In this document: positions 3,136-56,013 of the stretch, in pieces
How the letters are laid out: the number at the start of each line of letters is the position of its first letter
How positions within the stretch are numbered: position 1 is the first letter of the stretch
Source: Elephas maximus
Lineage: Eukaryota
Assembly: GCF_024166365.1 (NCBI RefSeq)
Contig: NC_064841.1
Location: forward strand, 46,375,680 to 46,439,679
Direction of reading: 5' to 3'
Length of the DNA stretch: 64,000 bases
Notes under the pieces: generated by a model
Told to the model about the DNA's origin: nothing
The model's input: the letters and a program-made list of their open reading frames with translations, nothing else
Databases searched by the model: none
Position numbers and translations under genes: made by a program

Positions 3136-4227
3136 CTAACTAACTACAGGCTTAAAAAGAAATAAGATCAATACCTCAGTTTGTAGACTGAAGAGTTTAG
3201 TCCAAGGCACAAAATTCCTCCAGCTTTTTCTGCAGACTTTGTCATCCTCATTATTTTGTGCCTGAAAGCTTGAGGTAAAATCACTTCTTGTTACATCAGA
3301 TTTTGCTACCCTTTTTGAAAACCTACGTGCTTGAAGCACTGGCCTTTCATTACTTTTCATTTCAGAAGAACTTTCATGAATTGAGGCAGTCCAAAGATCA
3401 TGTTGGGGAGCATGTGACAATACATTTCCAGCAGAAAGAGTTAATGGAAAAGAAACTCCTGACTCACTGCTAGCAAACCCAAGTACATCTATTGGTGGCT
3501 TATAATTGGCACTCAAAGGACCCAGAGAATTTTGAAAATGAAGAGGAGAGGGAACGCCAAAACCTGTGGCTGAAACAGGGGGAGGAACTCTAGGAACAGG
3601 AAGAAAAAGATGTGGTCTGGGAGTAGAACTGCCACTTCCATAGATCTCATGGTCTTGGTAAATTTTAGATCGATCAATCTGTTTGGAGCCAAACAATACA
3701 GGTGAAAAAAGAGAAGAGGCACGGGATCTAAAAGGTGGGTTCTGGGGTGGCAGCCTGGAAGGGAAATCCAACTTAACAGAAATGTCAGTACAACTGTCAG
3801 TCTCAAGGTCTTGGTCATATTTAGATGGACCAAACTGTCTGAGACTAGCAGGAGAACCAAAAACAGAGTTCTGAGGAGAGCTGGGAGGGGAGAGAGAAGC
3901 AGAATCAACGTGAAAGGCACCTAGGGGAGTGGGTGCAGCATCAAGAGAAAGAGAAGGCTTGAAAACAGCATTTTTTCTGTTTAAAGAGGATTTCCTAAAT
4001 TGTGCTTTAATTCCTCTTTTTTTTAATGAATTCATCCAGCTTAAATCCAATGGCTTTGCCACAAGTCTACATTCAGAATTGCATATTGAAGGTTGTACTG
4101 GTAGTTGTGTGGCTAAATTAAACACTTCAACATCTTCAGACACTTCCATCTTGAGTGATTTAACTTCTCTTTCAGTCAAAGATTTGGGTTGCAACTCTTC
4201 GTTCAGTTCAGAGGATGCTGAAACAAT
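3136..4227 (-). CDS. Large Ser/Pro-rich coding exon, probably the C-terminal exon of the same VWA5B-like gene. It runs IVSASSELNEELQPKSLTEREV...KVCRKSWRNFVPWTKLFSLQTEVLILFLFKPVVS*.
   Basis: An uninterrupted ORF of 1.1 kb is very unlikely by chance in AT-rich DNA. The acceptor cattacaattttctcttctgggtag| lies at 4228-4229, and its own TAG is the in-frame upstream stop. The ORF-track start at 4194 is a TTG, not ATG. The exon ends either at the stop codon (3136-3138), with an AATAAA on the minus strand about 90 nt downstream at 3045-3050, or at a possible donor ACTGAG|gtattg at 3175. Its N-terminal residues weakly resemble VWA5A GVISSFTAFIAINKEL. Confidence 0.45.
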   Translation of the reverse strand: MVSASSELNEELQPKSLTEREVKSLKMEVSEDVEVFNLATQLPVQPSICNSECRLVAKPLDLSWMNSLKKRGIKAQFRKSSLNRKNAVFKPSLSLDAAPTPLGAFHVDSASLSPPSSPQNSVFGSPASLRQFGPSKYDQDLETDSCTDISVKLDFPSRLPPQNPPFRSRASSLFSPVLFGSKQIDRSKIYQDHEIYGSGSSTPRPHLFLPVPRVPPPVSATGFGVPSPLHFQNSLGPLSANYKPPIDVLGFASSESGVSFPLTLSAGNVLSHAPQHDLWTASIHESSSEMKSNERPVLQARRFSKRVAKSDVTRSDFTSSFQAQNNEDDKVCRKSWRNFVPWTKLFSLQTEVLILFLFKPVVS

Positions 4228-5611
4228 CTACCCAGAAGAGAAAATTGTAATGTAAGAAGAAAATACAGAATAAAACTAACAATCCAACAAGCATACTGAA
4301 GACTTTCTTGTAGTCAAGCAATTGTTTACGCCAGATCTTGAGTCCCAGAATCAGGATCATCGACATGAGCAAAAACATTGAAGATAAAACCAGAGATCTT
4401 CAGTATCATTTAAGTATGACTCCCTCATTTTATAAATATGGAATTTGAGGCCTGGAGAGAATGTCAGCAATAAATATATCAGGTACTTAAAGCTTTTCAT
4501 CTCTTTAGAATCACAGAACTTTAAGCACTCCTCATTTTACGTATGAGGAAACTGAAAACCATAGGAATAGAGTGACTTGCCCAAAATGTTACAATTAGCA
4601 GAATTACAGTCTGTAAATTAGCCCTAAAATAAGCTAACGATTTGAAGTAATTTTTTCTAGTTTTTTATCCTGGTTTTCAGCAATATTAAGAAACTGAGAA
4701 AAATGAAAAGATATTTCAAAGGCTTTAATTAAAGTAACTAAATGAATGTATCTTCATACCAGAGTAGAACAATATGGATAACACAGGGGAATGAAAAGAT
4801 GCTATTTTACTATTATTTCAATCTAAATATGGTGTCCCTTAAAAAGCTGCATATAATCAAATCAAGTTTCATACGCACGGTAAGTTCTTTAGCTTTAATA
4901 CTTTTGTAAATAATTAGTCCCTAAATGCATCAAAGTAAATGAGCTTTTAAAAAAGCAGTACCCCTTTTCCAACTCAGCCAAGTTCCAAGCATACATTTAA
5001 ATAATTAATACTACAAAACACATAATAAAACACACATTTAAAAACAATATTTTTTAAACAATGTTTATCTGGTTCAGAAATATTTTTTGGAATTAGACAA
5101 GCAATCCAAAAAGAACAATAGCGATGTATTAGGTCCATCAGATGTTAAAGCATTTTCTAATAACTACAATAACTAAAATGGATAGATCAATGGAACAGAG
5201 CAGATAGTCAAGCAATATACCCCTAAACATGGGTATTTAGAAGATGAAAAGGGTATTTCAAATCAGTGGGAGAAAAGGAATAATCACTCAATAAACAGTA
5301 TTGGGAGAAGTGGGTAGCCATCTGGAAAAGAATAAAAAAGTTGGTTCCATACTTCTTATTTTATATCAGGAAAAATTCAAACTGCATGAGCAATTTCAGG
5401 GAATTCACATTACTAAGGGCTCATTTCCCAAATATATAAACTTTCCTAAAATAAATAAGAAAATGACTAACAAACAGCACAATAAAAAAGTACAAAAGAC
5501 ATGAACAGACAGTTCATAAAAAGGGAGATATGTAGACCCTTAAGAATAGGAAAACATGCTCTTCATTCATAAAGAACAAAATGAAAATTAAGAAGTCACT
5601 AATACATTTTT

Positions 5612-5722
5612 ATTTTTTTTTCAACAACTGTAAGGATGGCTCAGGACCAGGCAATGTTTCCTTTTGTTGTACAAAGGGTCGCTATGAGCCGGAACCGACT
5701 CGACGCCACCGAACAACACCAC
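5612..5722 (+). mobile_element. RTE-tail / AfroSINE 3' tail fragment.
   Basis: It contains ggctcaggaccaggcaatgtttcc...gggtcgctatgagccggaaccgactcgacg, the conserved RTE/AfroSINE tail. Confidence 0.7.
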
Positions 5723-5759
5723 CACCAATACATTTTTCACCTATTTTGTTCGTACATTA

Positions 5760-7005
5760 AGTGTTGTTATTGTTAGGTGTTGTCGAGTCAGTGCCGACTC
5801 ACAGCGACCCCATGTACAACAGAATGAAACGTTGCCTGGTCCCGTGCCATCCTCACAATCATTGCTGTGTTTGAGCCTATTGTTGCAGCCGCTGTCTTAG
5901 TTATCTAGTGCTGCTATAACAGAAATACCACAAGTGGATGGCTTTAACAAAGAGAAATTTGTTTTCTCACAGTCTAATAGGCTAGAAGTCCAAGTTCAGG
6001 GCATCAGCTCCAGGGGAATGCTTTCTCTCTGTCGGCTCTGGGGGAAGGTCCTTCTCATCAATCTTCCCCTGGACTAGGAGCTTCTCTGCACAGGAACCCC
6101 GGGTCCAAAGGATGCACTCTGCTCCTGGTGCTGCTTTCTTGGTGGTATGAGGTCCCCTTGTCTCACTGCTCACTTCTCTCTTTTATATTTCAAAAGAGAT
6201 TGGCTCAAGACATGAGCCAATCTCGTAGATTGAGTCCTGCCTCATTAACATAACTGCCACCTATCCCATCTCATTAATGTCAAAGGGGTAGAATTTACAA
6301 CACATAGGGAAATCACATCAGATGACAAAATGGTGAACAATTACAATACTGGGAATCGTGGCCTAGCCAAACTGGTAACACATATTTCAGGGGACACAAT
6401 TCAATCCATGACAGTCACTGTGTCAATCCATCTCATTGAGGATCTTCCTCTTTCTCACTGACCCTCTACTTTACCAAGCATGATGTCGTTCTACAGGGAC
6501 TGGATCCTGCTGATAATATGTCCAAAGTACATGAGACCATGTCTTGCCATCCTCACTTCTGAGGCGCATTCTAGCTGTACTTCTTCCAAAATAGATTTGC
6601 TCAATCTTTTGGCAGTCCATGGTATATTCAATATTCTTCACCAACACCATAATTCAAATGCATCTATACTTCTTCAGTCTTCCTTATTCACTGTCCAGCT
6701 TTCACATGCATATGAGGTGGCTAAAAATACCATGGTTTGGGTCAAGTGCACCTTAGCCCTCAGAGTGACATCTTTGCTTTTTAACACTTTAAAGAGGTCT
6801 TTTGCAGCAGATCTGCCCAATTCAATACAATGTTTGATTTCTTGACTGCTGCTTCCATTTATAGTAGCAAACTATTCACAGAGTTCTCCACAATACAAAC
6901 AGAGCTGCCTTATTCTTTATAACGGTAGTATAGATGTTGCTAGACTGCCCTCCAAAGAGGTTGTACTGATTTACACTCCCACCAGCTTGGAGGAAAGTGC
7001 CTTTA
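5760..7005 (-). mobile_element. RTE/BovB-type LINE 3' portion, antisense. It carries a roughly 520-bp foreign insertion at about 5897-6418.
   Basis: The reverse complement of the RTE tail is at 5770-5895 and the reverse complement of the RTE ORF C-terminus at 6420-6850. The track ORF 6480..6845 on the plus strand is its antisense reading. The RTE sequence ...gttgcagcc(a/g)ctgtc|...|cactgtgtcaatccatc is split by the insert, with a short ctgtc-type duplication at both edges. Confidence 0.7.
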
Positions 7006-7007
7006 CC

Positions 7008-7540
7008 ACTTTTTTTTTTTTTTTTTTTACACCTTATTGTACTTTAAGTGAAAGTTTATATAGCAAATTAGTTTTTCCATCAACATTCCATGCACAAACT
7101 GTTCCATGACATTGGTTGCAATCCCTGCAACATGTCAGCCCTATTCCCATTTCCTCCCTGGCTTTCTTGTTTTCATTCATCCAGTGTCCCTGCCCCTCCC
7201 TGCTTTTTCATCTTGCTTTTGGGCAATCACTACCCTTTTGGTCCTGTACAATTGATTATTCTAAGGAGCACATTCCTCATGGGTATTATTGTTTATTTTA
7301 TAGGCTGAGAGGTGGTCTCTGGGAGTATCTTCAGTTTCCGTTAGAAGGCTGTCTTAGGGCATTAGTCTCAGGGGTTCCTCCAGTCTCTATCAGACTATTT
7401 CCAGGCACTCTTGCTAATAATAATGCTGACATTATTGAATGCCTACCAAGAACCAGACATGTTCTAAGGGTCTTACATGTACTAATTCATTTACTATTCA
7501 CAACTCTATGAGTCAGGTTCAATTATTGTCACCATTTTAG
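7008..7540 (-). mobile_element. L1 3'UTR/3' end with poly(A), seen as poly-T at 7008-7030. It is 5'-truncated.
   Basis: The reverse complement resembles the 3' terminus of the elephant-type L1 3'UTR (...gacttgatttgtaaactttcacttaaagcacaataaaaa). It has the same structure as 58857-59400. Confidence 0.65.
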
Positions 7541-8092
7541 AGCACAAAGAATTGGAGCATGACTGCCCTGACAGGGAACACAACAGAGAACCCCTGAGGG
7601 AGCAGGAGAACAGTGGGACACAGGCCCCAAATTCTCATAAAAAGACCCGGTTAAATGGTCTGACTGAGACTAGAAGGACCCTTGCGGTCATGGTCTCCAA
7701 ACCTGTTGGCTCAGGACAGGAACCATTCCTGAAGCCAACTCGTGAGACATGGATTGGACTGGACAGTGGGTTGGAGAGAGATGCTGAAGAGGAGTAAGCT
7801 ACTTGCATCAGGCGGGTACTTCAGACTATGTTGGCATCTCCTGTCTGGAGGGGAGATGAGAGGGTAGAGGGTGTTAGAAGCTGGCAAAATAGTCACGAAA
7901 AGAGAGACTGGAAGGAGGGAGTGGGCTGTCTCATTGGGGGGAGAGTAATTGAGAGTATGTAGTAAGGTGTATTTTTTTTTTTAGTAAGGTGTATATAAGT
8001 TTTTATGTGAGAGACTGACTTGATTTGTAAACTTTCACTTAAAGCACAATAAAAATTATTTAAAAAAAAAAGAATATATACAAAAAAAAAAA
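7540..8092 (+). mobile_element. L1 3'UTR/3' end with poly(A). It is 5'-truncated.
   Basis: It is near-identical in structure to 48530-49018 and 50000-50500 (...gactgacttgatttgtaaactttcacttaaagcacaataaaaattatttaaaaaaaaa). Confidence 0.85.
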
Positions 8093-9145: not shown

Positions 9146-9268
9146 CTGTGTCATGCCGGCATCTGATTGCTCCTCCTGCCAAGTTATATATGGCAGAAAG
9201 TCCACATCTTCTTTGGCAATAAGTTCCAAAATATTTGGAATATTAGGAAAAGGTAACTCATTCTCACC
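9146..9268 (-). CDS. VWA5-family gene, probable exon. It encodes GENELPFPNIPNILELIAKEDVDFLPYITWQEEQSDAGMTQ (41 codons, phase 0 to 0).
   Basis: Acceptor gattcaatatag|GGTGAG and strong donor ACACAG|gtaaat. It resembles VWA5A TFPLQPKPDVNLTIHRLAAKSLL. Confidence 0.4.
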
Positions 9269-9918: not shown

Positions 9919-10117
9919 ATTATGAAAAAGTGAAGAAACCTTTTTTGGGACGTATTCTTTCTTATGAACTACAGATAACTGAAGAGTAAAATTATACGAG
10001 GAAGCAATGAATTTCCCTGAAATGTCCGGATGGTGAAAATACTGCTCCTCTTTCGGAGCCACTGTGAAGTCTGAGTCGCAAAGGTGGAAGAGGAGCAGTT
10101 TATCTCTTTGGACTGGC
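9919..10117 (-). CDS. VWA5-family gene, post-VWA exon. It encodes ...PVQRDKLLLFHLCDSDFTVAPKEEQYFHHPDISGKFIASSYNFTLQLSVVHKKEYVPKK(VSSLFHN).
   Basis: Acceptor cacaatcctccaag|GCCAGTC with entry phase 2. It aligns to VWA5A QPAVEDVSLSWHLPPGLSAKMLSPEQTVIFRGQRLISYAQLTG. The 3' boundary is ambiguous between two weak donors, AAAAAG|gtttct at 9940 and CATAAT|gtagta at 9919. It is part of the 9907..10158 minus ORF. Confidence 0.5.
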
Positions 10118-10705: not shown

Positions 10706-13700
10706 GGTCTGGACTGCTTACGGTAAGGGCCACCAACCAGTCTGACTTCTACCTTAGCATTCTAGGTCATATATGAGCCCCTGGGAAAAGTCTTGGGAAG
10801 GCAGGTGATGAAAGTCATTGTCTGTGTGGCGGCCTCACTGGCTTTGCAGGAGTCACGTTTCATCCTCCTAGTACAGACTGCAATCCTCACTCAATGAACA
10901 GGATACCACCATTGAGAACCGCTGATGCTATTACAGGTAGCTGCCAGCCCTTGTCATATTTTATTATAATCCAGACCGACTGACTTTGAAACACTAAGAT
11001 ATCAGAAAAATCTTTAGAGATTGAAATTCCTATTATACATAAAACTATTTGTACACAGTTTTACAATGCCCAACAAGACTGACTCTGGTCTAGTCACTTT
11101 TTGTTTTCTCACATATAAAAAGTTCTAACTGGGCCTATTGAAAGTGTTCCTCCCCCTTTATATGAAACTTAGCATCTCTAATGGAAATAAGCAGGGATAT
11201 TGGTATGAACTTGACAAAAATGCATCTATGAAATAAATCTAGGGTTCTCTAAAAACTGTGCTTTGTACATTACTAGAAAATCAGTTCTTCTAAAAAAAGT
11301 CATTTTAAATATTATTCTTCAGTTACATTAATAATAATAATAATGAGCAATTGTTTAATCCAAGCTTTACTTCTTTACTATTTAAGATTAATCACATTGA
11401 AAGCCCAGTTTTCTTTGACATTAAATTCAGTGCTTTCCGCCACACTACCTCACATAAATGTGAAAAATCCTGTGTTTGAGATTTCTTTCTGTGAAATGCA
11501 GATTAGCAATCAGAGCAAGAATAATTTTCTCAATATGTAAAGATAAATAATTTAACCATGAGTTAACAACAATACGTACTCTTTTCTCAACTGCCACAAA
11601 GCTTGTAAACTGTGTTAGGAGAGAGTTTTCTTTACTGATTTTAATAATCAGAGATTTCAAGACTTGCTTCTTCATCTAGAATAGAATAAAACAAATGACA
11701 TCATGTCCTGTTATATTTTTTACTATTTACCTACATATGACCAATTAAAAGAGTATTAAGTAATCTAAAAAGTTATTTTTCTATGACAAATAAATCATTT
11801 CATTAGTATTTCAAACTATTTAGTCAATGATCCTAGGTAAATATCAAATAGGTGACTCCAATGTTTCCTGCAAAATAGGATCAACTGAAGAGCTAATTTG
11901 GAAAAAATAATTCATATTTATGTAGCTCTTTATAATTTCTCATTCTTTTACAGACAACCTGTAAGGCAGATGTCTGGTTCCCCTTCTAAAGAAAAGGAAT
12001 CAAGGCTTGGAAAGGTTAGATGACTTGTCAGTGGCAGGGCTGATCAGGAGCCATGCCGCCTAGCTCTTAGTTCAGTGCTGCCTCTCAGAGGAAAAAAGGA
12101 CCTTAAGAAAACTGAACACAAAGCTGCTAATCAGAGGGCAATAAAGGAGTCCTGCGAAAAGCAAGAGGTAGTTTTTTACTGGCCAGGACTGCTTGGAGGG
12201 CGTCCAGGCTCTTGAGTGGCACACAGGCACCTTCCTTTAGGGATGGCACTGAGCACTGATGCTCCCAGCCACATTTGAGATTCCAGCCCGTGAGAGACAC
12301 CAGAACAGTCAGAGTAGGTGGCTGAGTAGACCCTTGTCTGGAGGACATCAGCACAGTGAGGAGTGGCTTTGTCTCTTCTGTATGTCCTGAGGCAGGTTCC
12401 CAATCCCTTGTGCACTTGAGTTTCTCATTAGTAAAATGGGGATACTAACACCTACAACATGGGTTTGTTATAAGAATGAAATGAGGTCATGTGCATTACA
12501 GACACTTAGTAAATGTTCTCTTTCCTCCCTTGGCTGAATTCTCAGGAAACCACTAACATTCTTTCCCTAGGTAATTCATTCAACATGCATTTACTGAGCA
12601 CCCTGCACCCCAGGTACAGATATAACAGAGACAATGATGAAGCCTCCCACAACCACACTCATCTTTTCCACCCAGCTGTCCTGATTTGACATGTTTGAAG
12701 ATAACTCAATTTAAGAATGACCAAGAACAACGCATAATGGTTTCTACTATGAAAAAAACAGACCTGGTGATGTGTTTCATTTTCATGGAGAATGCCATAT
12801 TCAAAATCTCTAATGAGAGCTCGGGCTGTCAGCTTGTGAATCATCTATGTTTAAGAGGCAAAGGAAAAAAGATTCCAATGGCTTCTAATTAAAGACTTGC
12901 ATAGAAAACCAGTTTTTAAATTGAAGTATAATTTACATACATTAAATGCACCCTTCTTAAGTGTAGTTTGATTTAACAAATGTATACAGTTACACAACCG
13001 AAATAAAGATACAGAGCATGTCCTTCACTTTAAAATATTACCCCTGCTCCTCTAACCAGCTCCAGCCCCTAGCAACAACCACTGATTGATCTGTTTTCCA
13101 TCCTTACAGTTTTGCCTTTTCTATGAAAGGCCAGTACATAAATTCAATTTATTTCAGAATTTTAAAACTGTTTCTTTCCTGCAGGAAGAGTCAGCTTAGT
13201 CCCTGTAATGCCCAACATGAACATATCCAACATTAATATACTCTGAAGAACAAGAGCAGCAAAAATTGCATTATGAAGGATTTCCTCCTTTTTCTCTCAG
13301 ATGACTAAGAAATGCAACTGATCTTGAATGGCAATATCTGCTTTTAGTGATAACTCCAATCCTGTAATTTTGTTCTTGATAAGGTCATAGTTCATAAAGT
13401 AAGCATGACTATTAAAACTTCCGCCCAGATTCAATTTTTAAAGCAATATAGCTTTAAGTTCTTAAGTTCCCTTAAGTTCTATATATAAATCACTATCAAG
13501 TAATAAGTCAAAAGTTACTGATTCAGTGTCAAAAAGTAAGACATATTTTATTTTTTAAAAACATCAACAACATCTGGGAAACAGTTTATCTGGTTATAAA
13601 AGTACTCCAATTAATAGCAAGCTATATGTGATTAGTATACATAAAGAATTTTCAAACTACAGTGGATTCAGTACTAATGCAAATACTGCAAATTTTTTTG

Positions 13701-14384
13701 ATAATTCATTTGCTTTTAACCCAAAAATAGAAAAAAACAAACATATTCTCAATATATGATATGGTTTACTCTTACTCTGGTGCTGTTATACTTAATATAT
13801 ATAAAAAAAAAATAGACCAGTAGCATTACACTTTTATTGTGTCATGGCTATCTTTGAGATCTCCCTAGAAAACTTTTCATGCATAAAATGCAATATTTAA
13901 TTTATTCACACCCATTGAAGCTCATCTACGGACACAGAACCCCAGATAAAGACCCTCTGCATTAGAAACTTAAGGAAAGTGTCCTCATTTGTACAGACAA
14001 CAATCCTTCACACTGCATGTTGAAATCTCAGCACAGAAAAACAACAAAAGAAGTAGATGAAGCATTATATATTAAAATATAAAATTACAGCTTTGGAACA
14101 CTTGGTCCATATTTTAAGTTTTAAATCTTACAGTTCCAGTTGTCTTCTGAAGTTCTGTAGTTGACACCATTGTACAAAATTCTTTCTCTTGAATTAATGC
14201 ACTTAGAGTTGCCTGAATTGGGGAAAAAAAAAATTCCTCATTGGCTTTTCAACTCCACAGTGTCTTGGTTAGTCTAACAGTGATTCCTTCAGTGATTTAT
14301 TCTCCCCTTTGAAATGGAATTTAAAGGCTCTCCAGCACTCCTGGTTAACCACCAGCTAGCCCTGGAGAAGGACATAGTGCTCGG

Positions 14385-14548
14385 TAAAGTAGAGCGTCAG
14401 TGAAGAAAAGGAAGACCCTTAACAAGATGGATTGACACAGTGGCCGCAGCAATGGGCTCAGGCATAACAATGATTGTGAGGATGGCTCAGGACCGGGCAG
14501 TGTTTTGCTCTGCTGCACAAGGGGTCACTATAAGTCAGAATTGACCCA
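14385..14548 (+). mobile_element. RTE 3' end fragment.
   Basis: It reads ...ttgacacagtggccgcagcaatgggctcaggcataacaatgattgtgaggatggctcaggaccgggcagtgttttgctctgctgcacaaggggtcactataagtcagaattgac. Confidence 0.75.
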
Positions 14549-17500
14549 ATGGTGCCTAACAAGAACATGTTCTCAGCAGCAGAAAGTTTGCCAGCATACT
14601 ATGATTTGGAAGGGGGTACAGGGAGGAGAAAAAAGAAAACAAGAAAAAGACAATTATTAGCAAACTACATTGCTCTTCCCATAGTAAAACAAATTATGTG
14701 CCTTCGTACCTGTGTGCAATGTGGAATAAACCCATAGACGAGGAGGAGGTCATTGTGGAACAAAGACTGCACCTGGGCTGGTGCCTGCAAAGGTTCAGGC
14801 AAATTCGTGCTTAGCTGCTGCCATTTGACAGAGACTGAGTGGCAACTTGGAGAGTGTAATCTAGTCATTTGGTCTTCTATCTATTCACAAAAGAGGGATT
14901 ATTCCTTTTTCAATTTTACATCCAGGAAACACAGAGCTCACAGTGTTATTTAACATTTAAAATAAATTTTACATTCAATCTTTTTGGATTGTTGCCATTT
15001 GTTTCTTTCTCTTTCCTGCTACAGGTACTTTTTTAAAAGCAACTATATCGAATTTTTTTATAATAGCACTATCACATAACTGAAATTCACAAAATGTCAT
15101 AAAATTATTTCATTAGCTAATTACTAAAATGCAACTATAGGTATAAATTCCATTTATAAAAATTCATGCTAACAAAACCTATGTAATACTTTACTTTTTA
15201 AAATCAACCCGTGACACTTTATAAAGCAGTAATCAAATTATGAGCTAGAAGAATGAGTCGATTAAGTATTGACTGTGTTCCTGCTAGGTACGAGGCAGAT
15301 GGTCATCAGGGCAGGTGGTCAGACCTTCAGTAGCTTTAGCCTCTTTAGGGCTCCTCATTCCATTAATGAAAGCATAGGAGTTACTGTCACTACCCTTGTT
15401 AGAATATTTCTACACATAAACAGAAGACTACATATAAGATGTTTAAAAATCATACCTGTGTTTTCCAACTATGTTTGGATTTTGAGTTAAAATATTCAAA
15501 TACTCCGGCACCACACTGGGACAAAGTCCTTAAGATATGACGATTTGCTGTAGAACTAATCACATTTCACGTTTCAATTTTCAAGAAATTTTAGAAAACT
15601 TTCGCAGTACATGTTAACAATGTTGACAAAGCTCAAAACTGAATAGAAGAAGCATTACATGAAGAAGAATTTACTCTTCTACATCTGAGGTTAGAGAGAG
15701 AAAATTTGTAATAGACAGTATGATATATCTGAAGGTTTGGGTAATTTCAGCTTCCACGTATCAGAGGACTTTCTTATCTTCGACTATAGAAATAAGGAAA
15801 AAGGTAGGAACTTTTGACTTTTGGTCTACCTAAGTAGGTAGATGATTCTGAAAAAACCCCAAAGGTATCAGAAGAGATCAACCTACTTCTGATGAATGTC
15901 AAAGTTACCCGAACCGGATCCCAAAGGCCAAGAACTGGCAAAAGTGTTAATAGTCTACCTCTTAAATTGTATTACATCACTTCTAGATAGCACAAGTTAT
16001 AAAAGAAGTAATTCTCACTCTAGCTAAGAAAATTTTTTATATTTAAGTGATAAGTATCCTATTAAGATTCTCTCAATAATCAAGAATGCCTTTCTTGGGA
16101 AGTTTCTTCCTGAAATATTATGGAAATGATCAATTATTTTTCAGAAAAAAAGTTTAAAATTATTTCTAAGATATTTTTTAGCCCAAGCTAAAGACTGATT
16201 TTATCTTTTGTCCTCAAAATTAACTGACAATGATTATGATGTTGATTAGAAAATCCTTAAGACAAAGGTTATTAGTATTTTCTAGATTTCGTCAGTTAGG
16301 CTAGTTAGAATCTTTTTTGTGCCCCATTGTGTGGACTGCAGAGGACAAGTTATTTCAACAGGAAAAAGGCAGAACCGATGATCACTATTACTACAGAACC
16401 TGTACTAGAGTTTGTAAATATAAAATGTAGGTATAAAACAAGGCAGTAGCATTTAGAAAGATCATGACATAAATCATGATAATTGTAGCTCCTTCAGGCT
16501 GGGTCCTGTAACCAGCACAGCATCACTCCTCAGGGGAGGCTTTCTGACTCATGGTTCTACCCCCTCCAGCCCCACTCACCCTTGATCACAACTTCCCTAT
16601 TTCCTTACCAGCACTTGAGAAAACCTGAACTCACCCTCTAATTTGCAGGATTACTTGTTGACTGTCTGCCCCCTAGAATGAAAACTTCTTAACACAGGAC
16701 TCTTCCAGTCTCTCCTGGTACCGCGCCTCAGTGCCTAGCACAGTCTACCTTGTGATGAGCGCTCAGTGAGTAAGGGCAGAAATAAATGGTGCCGTCTGAG
16801 CCACAGCATCTGAACCTTGCTCTTTAGCATGGTCTAGTCTTCTCCAAAGAAGTATAAGCAGGCCTGTTCCATGGTAGTGTGGAGTCTGATGGAGGGGAAG
16901 TAGGCAGTGTTGTCATACACCAGGAAAAATTTACTGGAGCATTGGCTCAGGCAGGGATACTACCAGTGGAAAGGAGAAGACGGATCCCTACAGTATGGAC
17001 TAGTCCCAAGTTCACAGGTGCTACCTAATCATGTAAAGCCTCATTACTACAAACTCCTGCTAGAGTCCGCTCAAGGTTGAATAAATTTAATATGGTCTGT
17101 GACGCCCTGATAGGCCTTGGATGTCACAGGGCAGGAGCTGTGACTGCGAAGGAGGGGACGAAAAGAGAGACAGAGTGTCTAGCACTCTGGGGCAGGCAGG
17201 TCTGGCCTGAGTGCAGTGGAGCAAGCATCCAAGGGCCCTGGGCTCCTGGAGCATCCAGAGAACACAGCTGACCTGTACTTCCTGCCCCCACCCCCATCCC
17301 CTCAAAGTGTCAAGGTGAGGGTATGTTTAGAGTACCGGGAGATGAGTTGGATCCTTGTATTGCCTCAGAACAAAGAAAGCTGGCAGGTCTTTTTCTGGAA
17401 GGGTGTCTGCAGGGCAAGTACAGGGGGCTTCAGGGACAAGCCCAGAGGATTATGCTGTATGCAAACATCAGTATAGCACTTTCTGTTCAGTATTTTCCTT

Positions 17501-18329: not shown

Positions 18330-18517
18330 CCAGTGCCACAGGTGAACATCCTGGTGTGCTGGACATTTCTTTTCACAAGCTTGAATGTTAGGCTCTCGTT
18401 CTGAATGTGCCCATCAGATATAAGGAGGATGTTCCGTAGCCCCTGAGAAGGGTACAGCAAATTTAAATATCGGAGAGTTTTCCAGAAGTCTGTATTTCCC
18501 ATGGTAGGTGTAGCAGC
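18330..18517 (-). CDS. VWA5-family gene, VWA-domain exon. It encodes AATPTMGNTDFWKTLRYLNLLYPSQGLRNILLISDGHIQNESLTFKLVKRNVQHTRMFTCGT(G) (phase 0 to 2).
   Basis: Acceptor tcatttcctccag|GCTGCT and donor CACTGG|gtgagt. It aligns to VWA5A ADLGGTEILAPLQNIY...LQLFVFTDGEVTDTFSVIKEVRINRQKHRCFSFGIGEG. Confidence 0.65.
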
Positions 18518-19119: not shown

Positions 19120-19187
19120 CATAATGAACTCTGTTGGCATATCATTACTTGTGATATACTTAGGGTATGAAAATAATTCCTTGTAAC
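19120..19187 (-). CDS. VWA5-family gene, VWA-domain exon. It encodes (S)YKELFSYPKYITSNDMPTEFIM (phase 1 to 0).
   Basis: Acceptor tcttattatgcag|GTTACAAGG and donor CATTATG|gtaagt. The phases fit both neighbouring exons. It matches VWA5A SYEACFPESVKYTQQTMEEAL. Confidence 0.5.
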
Positions 19188-20765: not shown

Positions 20766-20802
<37 letters not shown>

Positions 20803-24249: not shown

Positions 24250-24372
24250 AGAAATAATAAATGCTCAGGTCGCTAACCAAAATATCTGCAGTTTGAATCC
24301 ACCAGCTGCTCCTTAGAAACTCTATGAGGCAGTTCTACTCTGTCCTATAAGTTGAAATTGACTCAACAGCAA
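24250..24372 (+). mobile_element. AfroSINE fragment, 5'-truncated.
   Basis: It reads ...gctaaccaaaatatctgcagtttgaatccaccagctgctccttagaaactctatgaggcagttctactctgtcctataagttgaaattgactcaacagcaacagg. Confidence 0.75.
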
Positions 24373-41400: not shown

Positions 41401-41440
41401 CATTAGAGAAATGCAAATCAAAATTACAATGAGGAACCCG
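35480..41440 (+). mobile_element. L1 'A', 5' part (5'UTR, ORF1, most of ORF2) of a near-full-length L1. It is interrupted at 41440 by L1 'B' and resumes at 49018.
   Basis: The 5'UTR lies at about 35480-36850. ORF1 spans 36850-37680 and shows ...NFPDILKDEKISTQDAHRTPYKVDSKRKSPRHIIIKLTKTKDKDRILRAARDKQ.... ORF2 spans 38230-41230 with endonuclease and reverse-transcriptase motifs. There are multiple stops and frameshifts. Confidence 0.85.
41228..41398 (-). mobile_element. AfroSINE inserted into ORF2 of L1 'A', with an 11-bp target-site duplication.
   Basis: The SINE sits between the L1 ORF2 residues ...SLAIK and IREMQIKTT.... The duplication cattagccatt appears at 41217-41227 and as cattaggcatt at 41400-41410. 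Confidence 0.8.
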
Positions 41441-44400
41441 GCGTGGCAGAGCCAAGATGGCGGAATAGACAGATGCTTCTGGCGAGCCCTCTTTACAAAC
41501 AAAGACCCAAAAAAACAAGTGAAACGAGTATATCTGTGACAAGCTGGGAGCTCTGAGCATCAAAGGCAAGCTCAGACAATGAACTGAGGGGCAGGGGAAG
41601 GAAGAGATCGTTCAGAAATGGAGAGGAGTTACCAGTCCTGATTCGTGGGGAGCCCTCAGGCACAATTCCCGGAGCAGTGGCAGTGTTGGCGGATTGGTAC
41701 TAGCGTTCAACCGCAGTTTCCTCAGGGAGAACAGCCAGCCACACAGCCTACTCACACCTCTGGAACCTAAGAAGAATGGCACTCTCGGCAAAAGCTAAGT
41801 ACTTGCGTGTATTTTACCGCACCCCTCCAATCCCAAACCGACCTCAGTGGCTGAAACCCTAGGCCTGAGATGGACCCTGGTGAGCACCTAGAGCCATCCT
41901 GCCAGCCTTAGGGAAGGAAAAAATTTGCAATTGGGGGAAAAGATAATTTGCTAGCTCCAGTAACCAGGGGAGCTCAGGACAGAAGCAGCTCCTGTCCAGG
42001 TATAAACCATCCGTGGACCTTAAGCACCTTTCCTTTCTGCATGGACCTGTGTGGGCCTATTTCAGGAAGATAGGCCCTTCTTGGCAGACTCCAACGATTT
42101 CAGCAGTGCGGTGGAGAGGTGGGTGTTTGACGTTTGACATTCCTTTCCCTATTAAACAAGGTCCTCACCTACCCACAACAGGGACCAAAGGACTGGTAGC
42201 TCCACTCAAGTCACCCAGCCACCTGCAACAGTGGTCCAAAGGTAACTGGTACCTCATAGTCCTTACATACAAAAACTTTGGGTGCCCACGGTGCCTCTGC
42301 AGAGCCAACCCACCAGCACGCTCTAGGGAACAGAGACGCATTTTCTTCAGACACCTGGGGGTTGGTTCTCGGCCCCCTGCCTTGTTCAGAGTGTGACCCC
42401 CTGCTGCAATCAGATACCAGTATATACACCAATCACCCCTGCCCCTCTAAGACTGTAGGACAGAGCCTGTACGACACACTTGATGATCAGCTACCTGGGA
42501 ACCTGAGCTGAATTCATACAAGAAAACTGAATGGACTCCTAGACTGATATACTTGACAACAGCTCTAGCCACCTGGGGACAAGACACCAGAGCTCCAAAG
42601 ACAAAAATAATCAAGCTAGCTCACTCAAGCAACCCATAGGGGTATAACAAAACAAAACAAAGCAAGCAGCTACGACACAGTAAGAAAGCATAAACTAATA
42701 CAATAACTTATAGATAGATGGTTCAGAGACAAGAGTCAATATCAAGTCACATAAAGAAACAGACCAAAATCACCTCAACAGGCTCTCAAAACAAAGAACA
42801 CTCGGATCTTCTGGTGAAAGTGCATTCCTGGAATTACCAGATGCAGAATACAAAAGTTTAATATACAGAACCCTTCAAGACACCACGAAGGAAATGAGGC
42901 AATACGCAGAACACGCAAAGGAACACACAGATAAAGCAACTGAAGAAATTACAAATATTATTCAGGAACATAATGAAAAGTTTAATAAGCTGGAAAAACA
43001 CATAGACAGACAGCAATCAGAAATTCAGAAGATTAACAATAAAATTACAGAATTAGATAACTCAACAGAAAGTCAGAAAGTCAGAGGAGTAGAATTGAGC
43101 AAGTAGAAGCTAGAATTTCTAAACTCGAAGATAAATAACTTGGCACAAATATATTTGAAGAAAAATCAGATAAAAGAATTAAAAAAAATGAAGAAACCTT
43201 AAGAATCATGTGGGACTCTATCAAGAGAAATAACCTACGAATGATTGGAGTACCAGAACAGGATTTAACAGAAAATACGGAGAAAATTGTTGAAGATTTG
43301 TTGGCAGAAAACTTCCCTGATATTGTGAAAGATGAGAAGATATCTACCCAAGATGCTCATCGAACTCCACATAAGGTAGATCTTAAAAGAAACTCACCAA
43401 GACATAATTAAAGTTGCCAAAACTAAACACAAAAAGACAATTTTAAGAGCAGCAACGGATAAACGAAAAGTCACCTACAAAGGAGACCAAATAAGAATAA
43501 GCTCGGAATACTCGGCAGAAACCATTCAGGCAAGAAGGCAATGGGATAACATATGTAAAAAACTGAAGGAAAAAAATGGCCAGTCAAGAATCATATATTC
43601 ATCAAAACTGTCTCTTAAATATGAAGGTGAAATTAAGACATTTCCAGATAAACACAAGTTGAGGGAATTCATAAAAACCAAACCAAAACTATGAGAAATA
43701 CTAAAGGGAGTTCTTTGGTTAGAAAATCAATAATATCAGGTATCAACCCAAGACTAGAACACTGGGCAGAGCAACCAGAAGTCAACCCAGACAGGGATAT
43801 CCAAAAAAACAAAGCAAGATTATTAAAAAAAAAAAAAAGCCCCAAACGTGGTAAGAGAGATGTTACTATATAAAAGAAGACAACATTAAAATAATAAAGA
43901 GGGACTAAGAAATGTAATCACACATGTTCCACACGGAGAGGAAGATGCGGCGATACAAAGAAATAAAAGTTAGTTTTAAATTTAGAAAAATAGGGGTAAA
44001 TCATCAGGTAACCACAAAGGAGACAAACTATCCTACTCATCAAAATAAAATACAAGGGAAAATACAGACTCAGCAGAAATAAAATTACCGAACAACAAAT
44101 ATGAAGAAAAGACAATATATAAAGAAAATCTACTCAGCACATGAAATCAAGGGGGAAAAGGAAACTGTCAACACACAAAAAAAGACATCAAAATGATAGC
44201 ACTGAATTCATACCTATCCATAATTACCCTGAATGTAAATGGGCTAAATGCACCAATAAAGACACAGAGAGTGGCAGGATGGATTAAAAAACAAGATCCG
44301 TCTATATGCTGCCTACAAGAGACACACCTTAGACTTAGAGACATAAACAAACTAAAACTCAAAGGATGGAAAAAATATATCAAGCAAACAACAATCAAAA

Positions 44401-47400
44401 AAGAGCAGGAGTGGCAATATTAATTTCTGACAAAATAGACTTTCAAGTTAAATCCATCAGAAAGGATAAGGAAGGACACTATATAATGATTAAAGGGACA
44501 ATACACCAAGAAGATATAACCATATTAAATATTTATGCACCCAATGACAGGGCTGCAAGATACAGAAAACAATCTCTATCAGCATTGAAAAGTGAGATAG
44601 ACAGCTCCACAATAATAGTAGGAGACTTCAACATACCACTTTCAGTGAAGGACAGGACATCCAGAAAGAAGCTCAATAAAGGCATGGAACATCTAAATGC
44701 CACAATCAACCAACGTGACCTCGTAGACATATACAGAACACTCCACCCAACAGCAACTAAGTATACTTTCTTTTCTAGGGCACATGGAACATTCTCTAGA
44801 ATAGACCACATATTAGGTCATAAAGCAAGCCTTAGCAGAATCCAAAACATTAAAATATTACAAAGCAATTGCTCTGACCATAAGGCAATAAAAGTGGAAA
44901 TCTATAGCAGGAAAAGGACGGAAAAGAAATCAAACACCCGGAAACTGAACAATACCCAGCTCAAAAAAAACTGGATTATATAAGACATTAAGGATGGAAT
45001 AAAGAAATTCTGAGAATCCAATGAGAATGAAAACATATCCTATCAGAACCTTTGGGACACAGCAAAAGCAGTGCTCAGAGGCCAATTTATATCAATAAAT
45101 GCACACATTCAAAGGAAGAAAGGGCCAAAATCAAAGAATTAATCCTACAACTTGAACAAATAGAAAGAGAGCAACAAAAGAGACCCACAGGCACCAGAAG
45201 AAAACAAATAATAAAAATTAGAGCTGAACTAAATAAAATAAATAGAAAACACAAAAACAAGTGAAAGAATTAATAAGACCAAAAGCTGTTTTTTTTTTTT
45301 TTTTTTCAAATCAACAAAATTGATAAACCACTGGTCAAACTGACAAAAGAAAAACAGGAGAGGAAGCAAATAACCCAAATAAGAAACGAGATGGGCGATA
45401 TTACAACAGACCCAACTGAAATGAAAAGAATCATATCAGATTACTATGAAAAACTATACTCAAACAAATTTGAAAACCTAGAAGAAATGGATGCATTCCT
45501 AGAAACACACCACCTACCTAAACTAACACAAACAGAGGTAGAACAACTAAATAGACCCATAACCAAAGAAGAGATTGAAAAGGTAATCAAAAAACTCCCA
45601 ACAATAAAAAAAGCCCTGGTCCGGACGGCTTCACTGCAGAGTTCTACCAAACTTCCAGAGATGAGTTAACATCACTACTACTAAAGGTATTTCTGAGCAT
45701 AGAAAAGAACGGAATGCTACTAAACTCATTCCACGAAGCCACCATATCCCTGATACCAAAACCAGGTAAAGAACGACAAAAAAAGAAAATTACAGACCTA
45801 TATCCCTCATGAATGTACATGCAAAAATCCTGAACAAAATTCTAGCCAATAGAATTCAACAACATACAAAAAATAATTCACCATGACCAAGCGGAATTCA
45901 TAACAGGTATGCAGGGATGATTCAACATTAGAAAACCAATTAATGTAATCCACCATATAAATAAAAGAAAAGACAAGAATCACATGATTTTATCAACTGA
46001 TGCAGAAAAGGCATTTGACAATGTTCAGCACTCATGAGTGATAAAAACTCTCAGCAAAATAGGAATAGTAGGAAAATTCCTCAACATATTAAAGGGCATT
46101 TATACAAAGCCAACAGCCAACATCACCCTAAATGTAGAGAGCCTGAAAATATTCCCATTGAGATCAGGAAGCAGACAAGGATGCCCTTTATCACCATTCT
46201 TATTCAATATTGTGTTGGAAGTCCTAGCCAGAGCAATTAGGCTAGATAAAGAAATATAGGCCATCCAGATTGGCAAGGAAGAAGTTAAAGTATCTCTATT
46301 TGCAGATGAGATGATCTTATACACAGAAAACCCTATGGAATCCTCCAGAAAACTACTGAAACTAATAGAAGAGTTCAGCAGAGTATCGGGATACAAGATA
46401 AACATACAAAAATCAGCTGGATACCGATACACCAACAAAAAGAACATCATAGGGGATATCACCAAATCAATGCCATTTACAGTAGCCCCCAAGAAAATAA
46501 AATATTTAGGAATAAATCTTTCCAGAGAAATAAAAGACAAAGAAAACTATAGTACAGTTCTGCAAGAAACCGAAAGAGACTTACATAAGTGGACGAACAT
46601 ACCTTGCTCATGGATAGGAAGACTTAACATAAAAAAAAAAAAAATCTATTCTACCCAAAGCAATCTATACATTTAATGCAATTCCAATCCAAATCCCAAC
46701 GACATTCTTTAATGAGATGAAGAATCCAATCACCAACTTTATATGGAAGGGAAAGAGGCCCCGGATTAATAAGGCATTACTGAAAAAGAAGAACAAAGTG
46801 GGAGGCCTTACTTTACCTGATTTTAGAACCTATTATACTGCCACGGTAGTCAAAACAGCCTGGTACTGGTACAATAACAGAACAGATACATGGACCAATG
46901 GAACAGAATTGAGAATCCAGACACAAATCCATCCACATATGAGCGGCTGATATTTGACAAAGGCCCCAAACAGTTAAATGCGGAAAAGACAGTCTTTTTA
47001 ACAAATGGTGCTGGCATAACTGGATATCCATCTGCAAAAAAATGAAACAAGACCCATACCTCACTCCATGCACAAAAACTAACTCAAAATGGATCAAAGA
47101 CCAAAACATAAAATCTAAAACAATAAAGATCATGGAAAAAAAAAATACAGACAACATTAGCAGCCTCAATACATGACATAAACAGAATACAAAACATTAA
47201 AAAGAATGTAGAAGAAAAACTAGATAACTGGGAGCTCCTAAAAATCAAGCACCTATGCTCATCCAAAGACTTCACCAGAAGAGTAAAAAGTCTACCTACA
47301 GGCTGCGAAAAAGTTTTTAGCTATGACATTTCTGATCAGCGTCTGATCTCTAAAATCTACATGAAACTGCAAACAGACAAATAACCCAACTAAAAAATGG

Positions 47401-49018
47401 GCAAAAGATATGAATACACACTTCACTAAAGAAGACATTCAGGTAACTAACAGATATATGGGGAAATGTTCAGGATCATTAGCCATTACAGAAATGCAGA
47501 TCAAAACTACAATGAAATTTCATCTCACTCCAAAAAGGCTGGCAGTAATCCAAAAAACACAAAACAATAAATGCTGGAGACGCTGTGGAGAGATTGGACT
47601 TATACACTGCTGGTGGGAATGTAAAATGGTACAACCATTTTGGAAATCGATTTGGTGTTTCCTTATAAAGGTAGAAATAGAACTACCATACGATCCAGCA
47701 ATCCCACTCCTTGGAATATATCCTAGAGAAATAAGAGCCTTTACATGAACAGATATATGCACACCCATGTTTACTGCAGCACTGTTTACAATAGCAAAAA
47801 GCTGGAAGCAACCAAAGTCCCCATCAACAGATGAATGGATAAATAAATTATGGTATATTCACACAATGGAATACTACGCATCGATAAAGAACAGTGAGGA
47901 ACCTGTGAAACATTTCATAACATGGAGGAACCTGGAAGGCATTATGCTGACTGAAATTAGTCAGTTGCAAAGGACAAATATTGTATAAGACCACTATTAT
48001 AAGAACTTGAGAAATAGTTTAAACTGAGAAGAAAACATTCTTTTGTGGTTAAGAGAGGCGGGAGGGAGGGAGGGTAGGAGAGGGACATTCACTAATTAGA
48101 TAGTAGATAAGAACTACTTCAGGTGAAGTGAAAGACCAAATACAACACAGGGGAGCTCAGCATCTCTGGACTAAACCAAAAGCAAGGAAGTTTCCTGAAT
48201 AAACTGAATGCTTCAAAGGCCAGCGTAGCAGGGGCAGGGGTCTGGGGACCATGGTTTCAGGGGACATCTAAGTCAACTGGCATAATAAAATCTATTAACA
48301 AAACATTCTGCATCCTACTTTGAAGAGTGGCATCTGGGGTCTTAAATGCTAGCAAGCAGCCATCTAAGATGCATCAATTGGTCTCAACCCACCTGGATCA
48401 AAGGAGAATGAAGAACACCAAGGGCACAAGTCGATTACAAGCCCAAGAGACAGAAGGGGCCACATGAACCAGAGACTACATCATCCTGAGACCAGAAGAA
48501 CTAGACGGTGCCTGGCTACAACCGATGACTACCATGACAGAGAACACAACAGAGAGAGCCCTGGAGGGAGCAGGAGAGCAGTGGGATGCAGACGCCAAAT
48601 GCTCATAAAAACACCAGACTTAATGGTCTGACTGAGACTAGAAGGACCCCAGTGGTCATGGCCCCAGACCTTCTGTTGGCCCAGGACAGGAACCATTCCC
48701 AAAGCCAACTCTTCAAGACACGGACTGGACTGGACAATGGGTTGGAGAGGGATGCTGGTGAGGAGTGAGCTTCTTGGATCAGGTGGACACTTGAGAATAT
48801 GTTGGCATCTCCTACCTGGACGGGAGATGAGAGGGTGGAGGGGGTTAGAAGCTGGTGAAATGGACACGAAAAGACAGAGTGGAGGGAGAGAACAGGCTGT
48901 CTCATTAGTGGGAGAGTGATTGGGAGTGTGCAGCAAGGTGTATATCAGTTTTTGTGTGAGAGACTGACTTGATTTGTAAACTTTCACTTAAAGCACAATA
49001 AAAAATTATTTTAAAAAA
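41440..49018 (+). mobile_element. L1 'B', a full-length L1 of about 7.6 kb (5'UTR, ORF1, ORF2, 1-kb 3'UTR, poly(A)) nested inside L1 'A'. It is not coding-competent.
   Basis: The 5'UTR (41440-42890) is homologous to 35480-36850. ORF1 remnants lie at 42894-43900, ORF2 at 44190-47990 (DHILGHK endonuclease, QGCPLSP reverse transcriptase, a fragmented YADD box (..FADEMI..), CWWEC zinc knuckle), the 3'UTR at 47990-49010, and the A-tract at 49010-49020. ORF1 and ORF2 carry many stops. Target-site duplications (a)aaattacaatgag sit at 41427-41440 and 49019-49032. Confidence 0.85.
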
Positions 49019-50505
49019 TTACAATGAGATTCCATCTCACAACAGCAAGGCTGGCATTAATCCAAAAAACACCAAAAAATTAATAAATGTTGGAGAGGTT
49101 GTGGAGAGACTGGAACACTTGTACACTGCTAGTGGGAATGTAAAACAGTACAACTACTTTGGAAATCGATCTGACACTTCCTCAAAAAACTAGAAACAGA
49201 ACTACCATATAATCCAGGAATCCCATTCCTTGATTTCATATCCTAGAGAATAAAAGCCCTCACAGGAATAGATACATGCACATCCATATTCATTGCAGCA
49301 CTGTTTACAATAGCAAAAATATAGAAACAACCAAGGTCCCCTTCAATGGATGAATGGATAAATAAATTATGGTATATCCACACAATGGAATACTATGCAA
49401 CCATAAAGAGCAACAATGAACCCTTGAAACATCTCATAACATGGAGGAATCTGGAAGGCATTATGCTGAGTAAAAGTAACCAGTCACAGAAGGACAAATA
49501 TTGTATGAGATCACTATTATAAGAACTCAGGAAAAGGTATAAATGCAGAAGAAAACATTCTTTGATAGTTACGAGTGTGGGGTGCAAGGTAGGGGGTATT
49601 CATTAATTAAATAGTAGACAAGAATTATTCTAGGTGATGGGACGGACAATACACAATAAAAGGGAAGTCAGCACAACTGGACTAAACAAAAAACTAAGAA
49701 GTTTCCTGAATACAACCAAACAGTTTGAGGGACACAGTAGTAGTCTGGTGACTATTGTTTCAGGGGACACCTAGGTCAACTGGCATAACAAAGGGTACTA
49801 AGAAAACGTTCTGCATCCCAGTTTGGTGTGTGGCATCTGGGGTGTTAAAAGCCAGCAAGCAGCCATCTAAGACACATCAATTAGTCTCAACCCACTGGGA
49901 GCAAAGAATAATGAAGAATACCAAAGACACAAGGAAAATATGAGCCCAAGAGAAAGAAAGGGCCACATAAACCAAAGACTTCATCTGCCTGAGACCAGAA
50001 GAACTAGACGATGCCTGGCTACCACCGAAGACCAGCCTTACAGGGAATACAACAGATGGAGCAGGAGAAAAGTGAGTTGCAGGCCTCAAATTCTAGTAAA
50101 AAGACCAGACTTAATGGTCTGACTGAGACTGGAGGGATCCCAGAGGTCATGGCTCCCAGATTCTGTTAGCCCAAAACTAAAACCATTCCCGAGGCAAACT
50201 CTTCAGACAAAGATTAGACTTAACTATAAGACAGAAAATGATGCTGTGAGGAGTGTGCTTCTTAGCTCAAGTAGACACATGAGACTATGTGGACAGTTCC
50301 TTTCTGGATGTGAGATGAGAAGGCAGAGGGGGACAGGAGCTGGTTGAATGGACACGGGAAATACAGGATGGAGAGAAGGAGTGTGCTGTCACATTGCAGG
50401 GAGAGCAACTAGGGTTACATAACAATGTGTGTATAAATTCTTGTATGAGAAACTGACTTGAATTGTAAACTTTCACCTACAGTACAATAAAAAAGGAAAA
50501 AAATT
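49018..50505 (+). mobile_element. L1 'A', 3' part (ORF2 C-terminus and 3'UTR) resuming after the L1 'B' insertion.
   Basis: It resumes exactly in ORF2 (...[10 protein letters not shown]|RFHLTTARLALIQKTPKN...). The 3'UTR ends ...gaaactgacttgaattgtaaactttcacctacagtacaataaaaaagg. Confidence 0.85.
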
Positions 50506-54300: not shown

Positions 54301-55040
54301 AACTGGTTTGATTTTTAAATCTATACTAATTTTTAATATTGTGCACACCCGTGCCAAGCATTAAATTTTCATGATATTATGGCAATGTGTCATCCTCAGA
54401 GGACATGCCTGAAGCATATGGTTCCATCTTTAACAACAACTAAATATGCACTAGATATTCTGGTTAGAAACTGACTGCATGCAATCATGCACCTATTGAA
54501 GGTACATTTAAAAAATACTTAAGAAAAAAATCTAGTGGACATGGTAATTATCCTTCTTCCAGATTCTCCACATTATATTCCTAAAAGCTAATAGTCAGAC
54601 GGCAAAGAACCTGGCCCTATTTCAGTCCCTGCAGAAATGCCTTCCTGGGTTACGATTTGGTAAAAATTGAGTAAATTTTTAAGTGAGCTTAGTTCCAGGA
54701 AGGCTTATCTTGTAAATACATTACACTCTTTTATAGTAAGATGACAGTTATGTAACCCAAATGTTTTCTTTTTGTTGATACTTCTGGGAAACTCAGTTCC
54801 CAATTATAGAGATAGTTATCTGCCTTGTAATATTTATACCATTTCCTCCTTTATTTAGACAAATCAGATATGTCTGATCAGCTTAGCGTCTCCCTGCTTA
54901 AAAGCAAATGAAACATCAGAGGCCCAAACACTATAAATTATCTTGGTTTCTAGTATGAATTTCATATTTTAAATCATTTTCCAACCCCTTTTTCAATTCT
55001 AATAAGACTACTAAGCTAGCAGATGAATAGCAAGTCATAC

Positions 55041-55127
55041 AGGTGCATCCTGATCCATCAAGTAAGCACCATGGCCTTGACTGATGGCTTCTTGGTATTC
55101 TTGACGGGCTCCTTCCTTCTCTTTAAC
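55041..55127 (-). CDS. VWA5-family gene, VIT-domain exon. It encodes VKEKEGARQEYQEAISQGHGAYLMDQDAP (29 codons, phase 0 to 0).
   Basis: Acceptor aattttttccag|GTTAAAG and donor GCACCT|gtatga. It matches VWA5A KMKARTNYEKAISQGHQAFLLEGDSS. A stop codon lies immediately after the donor in frame. Confidence 0.6.
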
Positions 55128-55881
55128 CTGGAAAAAATTATTTTCACATCCGTCATAATATGAATGGTGGCTTCAGACTTTAATTAGGAAAACTTAATCA
55201 TGTTTACTAAAATCTAGGCAAAAACAGAAAACTAAGAGCCTATCTAAGATGAATGGAAGCTTACGTAAAGTGACCATCAAAATGTACTTCTTATCTGATT
55301 CGAATTTGAACCAAAAAGAACAATTAAAGAAAACTCTCTTTAAATTTGGAACAAAATATTTCAGAGTCAATACAAAAAAAACAAAAACGGTTTGACTGGG
55401 ACTTTATTTTGAACAAAAAGTAACAAATTAAGTTTATTTTATCTTAAATTTACAAAATGTGGGTTGTAATTGCAATTGTGTTCTAATGATTAGAGTAAAC
55501 AAAGAATAAATCAACTGTTATTTCTTTTGGTACAATTTTTATACATGTATTTCAGTTTCACTTTTATAGCAGGGTATGGAGGATCAGTTTTTGCAAAAAT
55601 ATACAATAGCTACACCAGTTATCCAATATGCCTCTCTTAAACTTTTGATTTTGAAGTCACTCTTTTCTCAAGTGCCGGAGCACAGAATTTGCCAGAGACT
55701 AACGAAGGCTGGACAAACAGGAATTTAGAAATTTGAGTGGAGACTAACCGTATACGCATGAGAATATTTTTGCTTTATGACAAGGTTGCTACTCAACCTC
55801 ATAGCTACGGGGGACTCACATAATGAAGATTTAGGTAAATGGGAAACCAAAGTGAAATCACAATGCATTTTCTCCCCTTAC

Positions 55882-56013
55882 CTCTCCTACTATATGCTTC
55901 CCATTGATGAAAGCTTCAAAACCACACACAGCTGCTTTATCATCCAGAGGAAAGATATATTTTGCCTCAATTGGCACATGACTTTGATTTGTGTATGTTT
56001 GAAAAACGATGAC
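55882..56013 (-). CDS. VWA5-family gene, VIT-domain exon. It encodes VIVFQTYTNQSHVPIEAKYIFPLDDKAAVCGFEAFINGKHIVGE (44 codons, phase 0 to 0).
   Basis: Minus-strand acceptor ttttcttcttcag|GTCATCG and donor GGAGAG|gtaagg. The only open frame aligns to VWA5A VPLEAFFVFPMDEDSAVYSFEALVDGKKIVAE. It is not in the ORF track because it is under 60 aa. Confidence 0.6.

Follow-up and report, generated by a model that had tools for sequence, protein, structure and literature searches.

We describe here the minus-strand gene that spans at least positions 1432-56013 of a 64,000-nucleotide stretch of contig NC_064841.1 (the window). The stretch almost certainly holds the middle and 3' part of a placental-mammal PARP4, most likely an afrotherian one; PARP4 is the vault poly-ADP-ribose polymerase (vault PARP), also called protein mono-ADP-ribosyltransferase PARP4. 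Judged by its sequence, the gene is an ordinary vertebrate PARP4 of the kind already described, and not the VWA5B-like paralogue that an earlier sequence-only reading of the same DNA had proposed. This correction is the main value of the analysis, and it comes from full-length comparison and from the sequence outside the VIT-VWA domain pair, which together identify the family as PARP4. The VIT-VWA module is common to PARP4, VWA5, and ITIH proteins, so that the domain pair is insufficient to assign a family, and the earlier reader was misled by it.

The gene model has 17 exons running from 56013 down to 1432 on the minus strand, with 2905 nucleotides encoding 968 residues and no stop codon. On inspection of the sequence, every one of the 17 shows a pyrimidine-rich tract ahead of its AG acceptor, a GT donor, and phases compatible with those of its neighbors. 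With the 968-residue model as query, a phmmer search of all PDB chain sequences gave two matches, and in the first of these model residues 1-968 align with residues 639-1615 of the 1724-residue human PARP4 chain (1255 bits, E=0; entries 11jf, 9bw6, and 9bw7). The two proteins are colinear with an identical domain order, and human residues 639-1222 pair with model residues 1-584 without any indel, which bears out fourteen splice junctions in a row. In a BLASTP comparison with human PARP4 639-1615, the model reaches 63% identity and 1147 bits. Over the part of the gene that lies in the window, identity to human PARP4 is 65% overall, with approximately 82% outside the largest exon and 34% inside it. 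A provisional human PARP4 sequence served as the tblastn lead and is colinear with the window, residues 638-1616 matching positions 56016 down to 1430; its residues 639-1615 later proved identical to the sequence found in the PDB search.

Protein database matches point to the same family. Two database searches, one of 5.8 billion proteins with the VIT-VWA part of the model and one with its C-terminal part, yielded 142 matches in total, and none of the 142 carries a VWA5 name. The VIT-VWA query found 104 matches, and most of those named by their source are PARP4, poly(ADP-ribose) polymerase 4, or a close variant, with the remainder bearing generic names (hypothetical, unnamed, domain-containing). 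The mammalian fragments among these matches are 83-89% identical, and in many of the matches the PARP catalytic family PF00644 is situated directly N-terminal of VIT. The C-terminal query, consisting of the 601 residues that follow the VWA core and lie outside the domains common to VWA5 and ITIH, found 38 matches, whose informative names are almost all PARP4. PF26156 is precomputed on many of these C-terminal homologues and was absent from our local Pfam scan of the 968-residue model.

The exons are listed below in coding order, with percentages giving identity to human PARP4; those marked as missed are absent from the sequence-only reading.

55882-56013, minus strand: VIT exon, first in the window; human 639-682; phase 0; 97.7%; Pfam VIT
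55041-55127, minus strand: VIT exon; human 683-711; 75.9%
31412-31576, minus strand: exon with the end of VIT; human 712-766; 87.3%
30314-30360, minus strand: 47-nucleotide exon; human 767-782; acceptor TTTTTACAG, donor GTTTGT; 93%; missed
30112-30190, minus strand: 79-nucleotide exon; human 782-808; 84.6%; missed
23209-23346, minus strand: exon; human 809-854; 93.5%
20264-20459, minus strand: exon with the VWA start and the metal ion-dependent adhesion site (MIDAS), DxSxS = DCSNS; human 855-920; 70.8%
19120-19187, minus strand: VWA exon; human 920-942; 81.8%
18330-18517, minus strand: VWA exon; human 943-1005; 74.2%
15456-15555, minus strand: exon with the end of VWA; human 1005-1038; 84.8%; missed
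14710-14880, minus strand: exon; human 1039-1095; 84.2%; missed
14132-14212, minus strand: exon; human 1096-1122; 92.6%; missed
12764-12844, minus strand: exon; human 1123-1149; 81.5%; missed
11580-11675, minus strand: exon; human 1150-1181; 90.6%; missed
9146-9268, minus strand: exon; human 1182-1222; 63.4%
3175-4227, minus strand: largest exon, 1053 nucleotides, 351 codons; human 1223-1582; 34.2%; equivalent to human exon 30
1432-1531, minus strand: exon with part of the C-terminal MVP-interaction domain (MINT); human 1583-1615; 84.8%; missed, lying outside the interval considered earlier

Mapping the database matches back to the window exposed additional minus-strand exons near 30.1-30.4, 15.4-15.6, 14.7-14.9, and 12.8 kb. 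The 47-nucleotide and 79-nucleotide exons jointly bring the phase back to 0, and exon 15456-15555 supplies the rest of a Gly codon that is split at the end of exon 18330-18517. Exon 1432-1531, the protein of which opens DGFWKLTPELG..., ends with a GTAAGT donor, and the gene therefore goes on past the start of the window. Searches for further exons by tblastn, using the 142 homologues and human PARP4 against 56100-64000 and 1-1430 with E values up to 10-100, found nothing credible, so that the gene extends past the window on either side, with the BRCT and catalytic exons past the high-coordinate end and the last approximately 110 codons past the low-coordinate end. Within the window the gene model is complete. 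If exon structure is conserved, the 17 exons would be the orthologues of human exons 15-31.

The sequence-only reading had recognized a minus-strand gene of several exons that encodes VIT and VWA domains, and rightly so, as its ten intervals concatenate in frame and give Pfam matches to VIT (E=3e-35) and to VWA. It was also correct in regarding the gene as invisible to prokaryote-style calling of open reading frames (ORFs); in describing large introns filled with L1 sequence; in placing at least 52 kb within the gene, the model covering at least 1432-56013; and in reporting an intact DxSxS MIDAS motif, which is DCSNS in exon 20459-20264 as compared to DCSSS in human PARP4. Its exon list needs revision: by homology, nine of its ten intervals are genuine exons, although one (9919-10117) is spurious and eight exons were missed. 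The AG/GT boundaries claimed for the ten intervals are sound in that all are open and flanked as described, apart from the last, which runs into a stop codon, and the phases are mutually compatible within the concatenation, although 9919-10117 clashes with the true exon chain. We rejected this interval as an exon, as it has neither PARP4 homology nor a Pfam family; the junctions of exons 11675-11580 and 9268-9146 are phase 0 and the interval has stops in frame 0, and it thus cannot join them in frame. The last exon had been drawn as 4227-3136, but its true 3' end is at 3175, where a GTATTG donor follows ...SLQTE, and the extra 13 codons and the stop at 3136 are intron sequence past that donor.

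Several alternative identities merit consideration. A VWA5-family gene, in the form of a VWA5B-like paralogue of VWA5A, would share the VIT-VWA architecture, and in VWA5A, VWA5B1, and VWA5B2 the VIT, VWA, and downstream module are homologous to those described here at the superfamily level. VWA5A, which is also known as BCSC-1/LOH11CR2A, was compared using a provisional sequence that holds every motif quoted in the sequence-only reading, and it aligns to model residues 7-542 with E=4e-42, such that the whole VIT-VWA-plus-downstream module is homologous. However, identity to this provisional sequence is 25.7%, and not the 40-50% estimated earlier, with a score of 152 bits, as against the 63% and 1147 bits (1255 by phmmer) obtained with PARP4, and we reject the VWA5 assignment for this reason. 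Moreover, the BLASTP alignment to the provisional VWA5A sequence ends at model residue 542 with no counterpart of the exon-30 linker or of MINT, whereas the 426 residues beyond it (543-968) match PARP4 1181-1615, which includes both. VWA5 proteins are not known to have an upstream PARP catalytic region. Together with the lack of VWA5 names among the database matches noted above, this leaves a VWA5-family gene with scarcely any chance of being correct. The ITIH proteins (ITIH1-6) likewise have VIT followed by VWA, and ITIH4 is the only other PDB match to the model, but this match is marginal and at the level of VIT (E=5e-5, 24.6 bits, model 4-147), the score is approximately 50 times below that of PARP4, and there is no similarity past VIT. 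The ITIH heavy chains are plasma proteins that are secreted and whose C-termini are unrelated, and no ITIH-named protein is present among the 142 database matches. We give no credence to a gene of the ITIH family, the other vertebrate family with VIT and VWA.

A different type of alternative accepts the family but proposes that the locus is a non-functional or lineage-specific duplicate of PARP4, either an unprocessed pseudogene or a 'PARP4-like' paralogue, and not the orthologue that functions. Duplicates annotated as 'PARP4-like' are found in some mammals, with entries from Pongo, Pan, and Panthera among the database matches, and the promoter and both ends of the gene are outside the window. 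Nonetheless, each of the 17 exons is intact and has canonical splice sites, and the 2905 nucleotides contain neither a frameshift nor a stop. The fast-evolving exon 4227-3175 has 351 open codons, for which we estimate a probability of (61/64)^351, or approximately 5e-8, in random sequence, and identity to human in the domain exons is 63-98%, consistent with purifying selection. We consider it most unlikely that the gene is such a duplicate in place of the functional orthologue, and very unlikely that the locus is an intact, lineage-specific PARP4 duplicate in an afrotherian genome. Some points nevertheless weigh against reading the gene as the PARP4 orthologue. A recent unprocessed duplicate and an orthologue are indistinguishable from this window alone, the joining of the exons is predicted from genomic sequence, and exons for BRCT and the ADP-ribosyltransferase (ART) catalytic domain were not found in 56100-64000, such that the link between the VIT-VWA exons and an upstream PARP catalytic domain is one that we would expect from orthology.

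With the gene taken as PARP4, the coding order within the window is VIT, VWA, a conserved post-VWA region, a disordered linker, and the first approximately 54 residues of MINT. Pfam matches to the 968-residue model are VIT (3.8e-35), VWA_3 (1.2e-13), and VWA (3.1e-12), with VIT at model residues 2-95 and VWA, including the MIDAS sequence, at approximately 238-392. The portion of MINT present corresponds to human residues 1562-1615 only, of which exon 1432-1531 is 85% identical, and the Ser equivalent to human S1614 is retained (...IRSL in the model and ...IQSL in human). PARP4 has the domain order BRCT, HD-ART, VIT-VWA, and MINT (residues 1562-1724), joined by long disordered regions, and among the minor vault components it alone has a known enzymatic activity (PMC12280208). 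MINT docks onto repeat domains 3-5 of MVP within the vault cage, and human Ser1614 is reported to hydrogen-bond with MVP (PMC12280208). By orthology and from the literature, the protein encoded here would be anchored inside the vault cage by MINT, which binds repeat domains 3-5 of MVP. The ART domain would be predicted to ADP-ribosylate targets using NAD+, and the VIT-VWA segment may act as a protein-interaction module.

The one mildly interesting feature of the gene is the extreme divergence of exon 4227-3175 on a conserved background. Sixteen exons are 63-98% identical to human, whereas this 1053-nucleotide exon is 34% identical, and its 351 codons are open despite this divergence. It encodes a disordered Ser/Pro-rich linker, with the start of MINT at its 3' end. 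The sequence-only reading had described a long Ser/Pro-rich C-terminal exon, and the exon is indeed long and rich in Ser and Pro; it is not C-terminal, since coding continues in exon 1531-1432, and its character is not a VWA5B feature but that of PARP4 exon 30. Daugherty et al. described human PARP4 exon 30 as the largest exon, encoding approximately 360 disordered residues (PMC4038475), and exon 30 varies in both sequence and length among vertebrates and, in primates as well as bats, has been under recurrent positive selection (PMC4038475). To judge from the alignment, exon 4227-3175 is the orthologue of human exon 30 and its divergence reproduces the published pattern. The 34% identity may reflect positive selection in Afrotheria like that in primates and bats, and the published work suggests that the linker encoded here would likewise evolve under recurrent positive selection. 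Divergence of this type in exon 30 has already been recorded as a mark of conflict between host and pathogen (PMC4038475).

The large introns are packed with antisense L1s and AfroSINEs, as mammalian introns usually are with such repeats. In the 23.5-kb intron 31577-55040 there is an L1 ORF1 (Transposase_22, E=2.5e-18) together with two endonuclease and two reverse transcriptase segments, all on the plus strand and antisense to PARP4. Comparison of the window with itself places contiguous L1 DNA at 36229-50494 on the plus strand, a length of approximately 14 kb. The L1 cluster noted in the sequence-only reading is therefore real, although it is shorter than the 17 kb proposed and is arranged head to tail with a short interspersed nuclear element (SINE) inserted, and is not clearly nested. 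Remnants of ORF1, endonuclease, and reverse transcriptase are present in each of the two larger copies. Outside the main array, L1 fragments occur in further introns of the gene and also ahead of its first exon in the window; the window opens inside a fragment of the L1 reverse transcriptase region (1-487), and 60097-60258 on the minus strand encodes the Cys-rich C-terminal motif of L1 ORF2. The repeats are as follows.

36229 to ~42087, plus strand: L1 copy of ~5-6 kb, head to tail with the next; 76-80% mutual identity
42088 to ~47488, plus strand: L1 copy of ~5-6 kb, partner of the preceding
47503-49005, plus strand: L1 3' segment of ~1.5 kb, adjacent to and 78% identical to the next
49015-50494, plus strand: L1 3' segment of ~1.5 kb, partner of the preceding
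1-487, minus strand: other L1 piece
7559-8068: other L1 piece
21302-23077, plus strand: other L1 piece
58857-61410, minus strand: other L1 piece
29279-29446, plus strand: tRNA-derived SINE
35058-35225, minus strand: tRNA-derived SINE
41235-41401, minus strand: tRNA-derived SINE, within the first L1 copy
24272-24349: tRNA-derived SINE, partial copy
6412-6858, plus strand: ~450-bp repeat; 82% identical to the next, in inverted orientation; no Pfam match
27540-27985, minus strand: ~450-bp repeat, partner of the preceding

The tRNA-derived SINEs have the common core GTGGTTAAGTGCTACGGCTGCTAACC, with three matches as compared to none expected by chance, and they have GGTTT/GGTTTT repeat ends; we take these elements to be AfroSINEs. 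Elements of the AfroSINE type are confined to the genomes of Afrotheria, and in elephant the AFROSINE copies terminate in (GGTTT)n (PMC6007223). The diagnostic motifs of Alu, B1, B2, ID, CanSINE, PRE-1, and Bov-tA were not found in the window within three mismatches, nor were those of ERE, rabbit C repeats, VES, or the MIR core. These absences argue against a source among primates, rodents, carnivores, pigs, ruminants, horses, rabbits, or bats, and an afrotherian is the most likely source, with elephant, manatee, and hyrax as typical candidates. Short pieces related to the ~450-bp repeat are found at 14360-14540 and 5802-5895, and the longer copy adjoins sequence similar to the 3' part of an AfroSINE (…GACTCAGCGACCCTATG…). 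This repeat may correspond to AFRO_LA, a composite element of Afrotheria, which we offer as a candidate name.

The segment 62001-64000 is the GC-richest part of the window (45-55%), yet strongly depleted in CpG. It contains a 99-bp direct repeat, whose copies at 63104-63202 and 63308-63406 are 81% identical, as well as several minus-strand ORFs of 120-180 residues that have no Pfam matches. A scan for CpG islands, prompted by the 47% GC of the segment, found none, with a CpG observed/expected ratio of 0.19 overall and 0.04-0.20 in 62-64 kb. The segment is probably an old repeat or a long terminal repeat; it is not a CpG island, and it is no exon of PARP4. Pfam scans of the ORFs of at least 120 residues at 6480-6842, 7116-7508, 3516-3920, 42013-42393, 46103-46540, 48532-48987, 59867-60349, 60373-60789, 60778-61161, 62119-62658, 62890-63258, and 63113-63478 identified no families, and these ORFs are chance or repeat-derived. 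A search of the whole window for intronic small nucleolar RNAs and microRNAs gave no Rfam match at gathering thresholds. We also note two simple repeats in the intron that immediately precedes exon 20459-20264, one a perfect 33-bp tandem duplication at 20915-20981 (2.0 copies, 100% match), and the other a (GT)17 microsatellite at 20767-20800.

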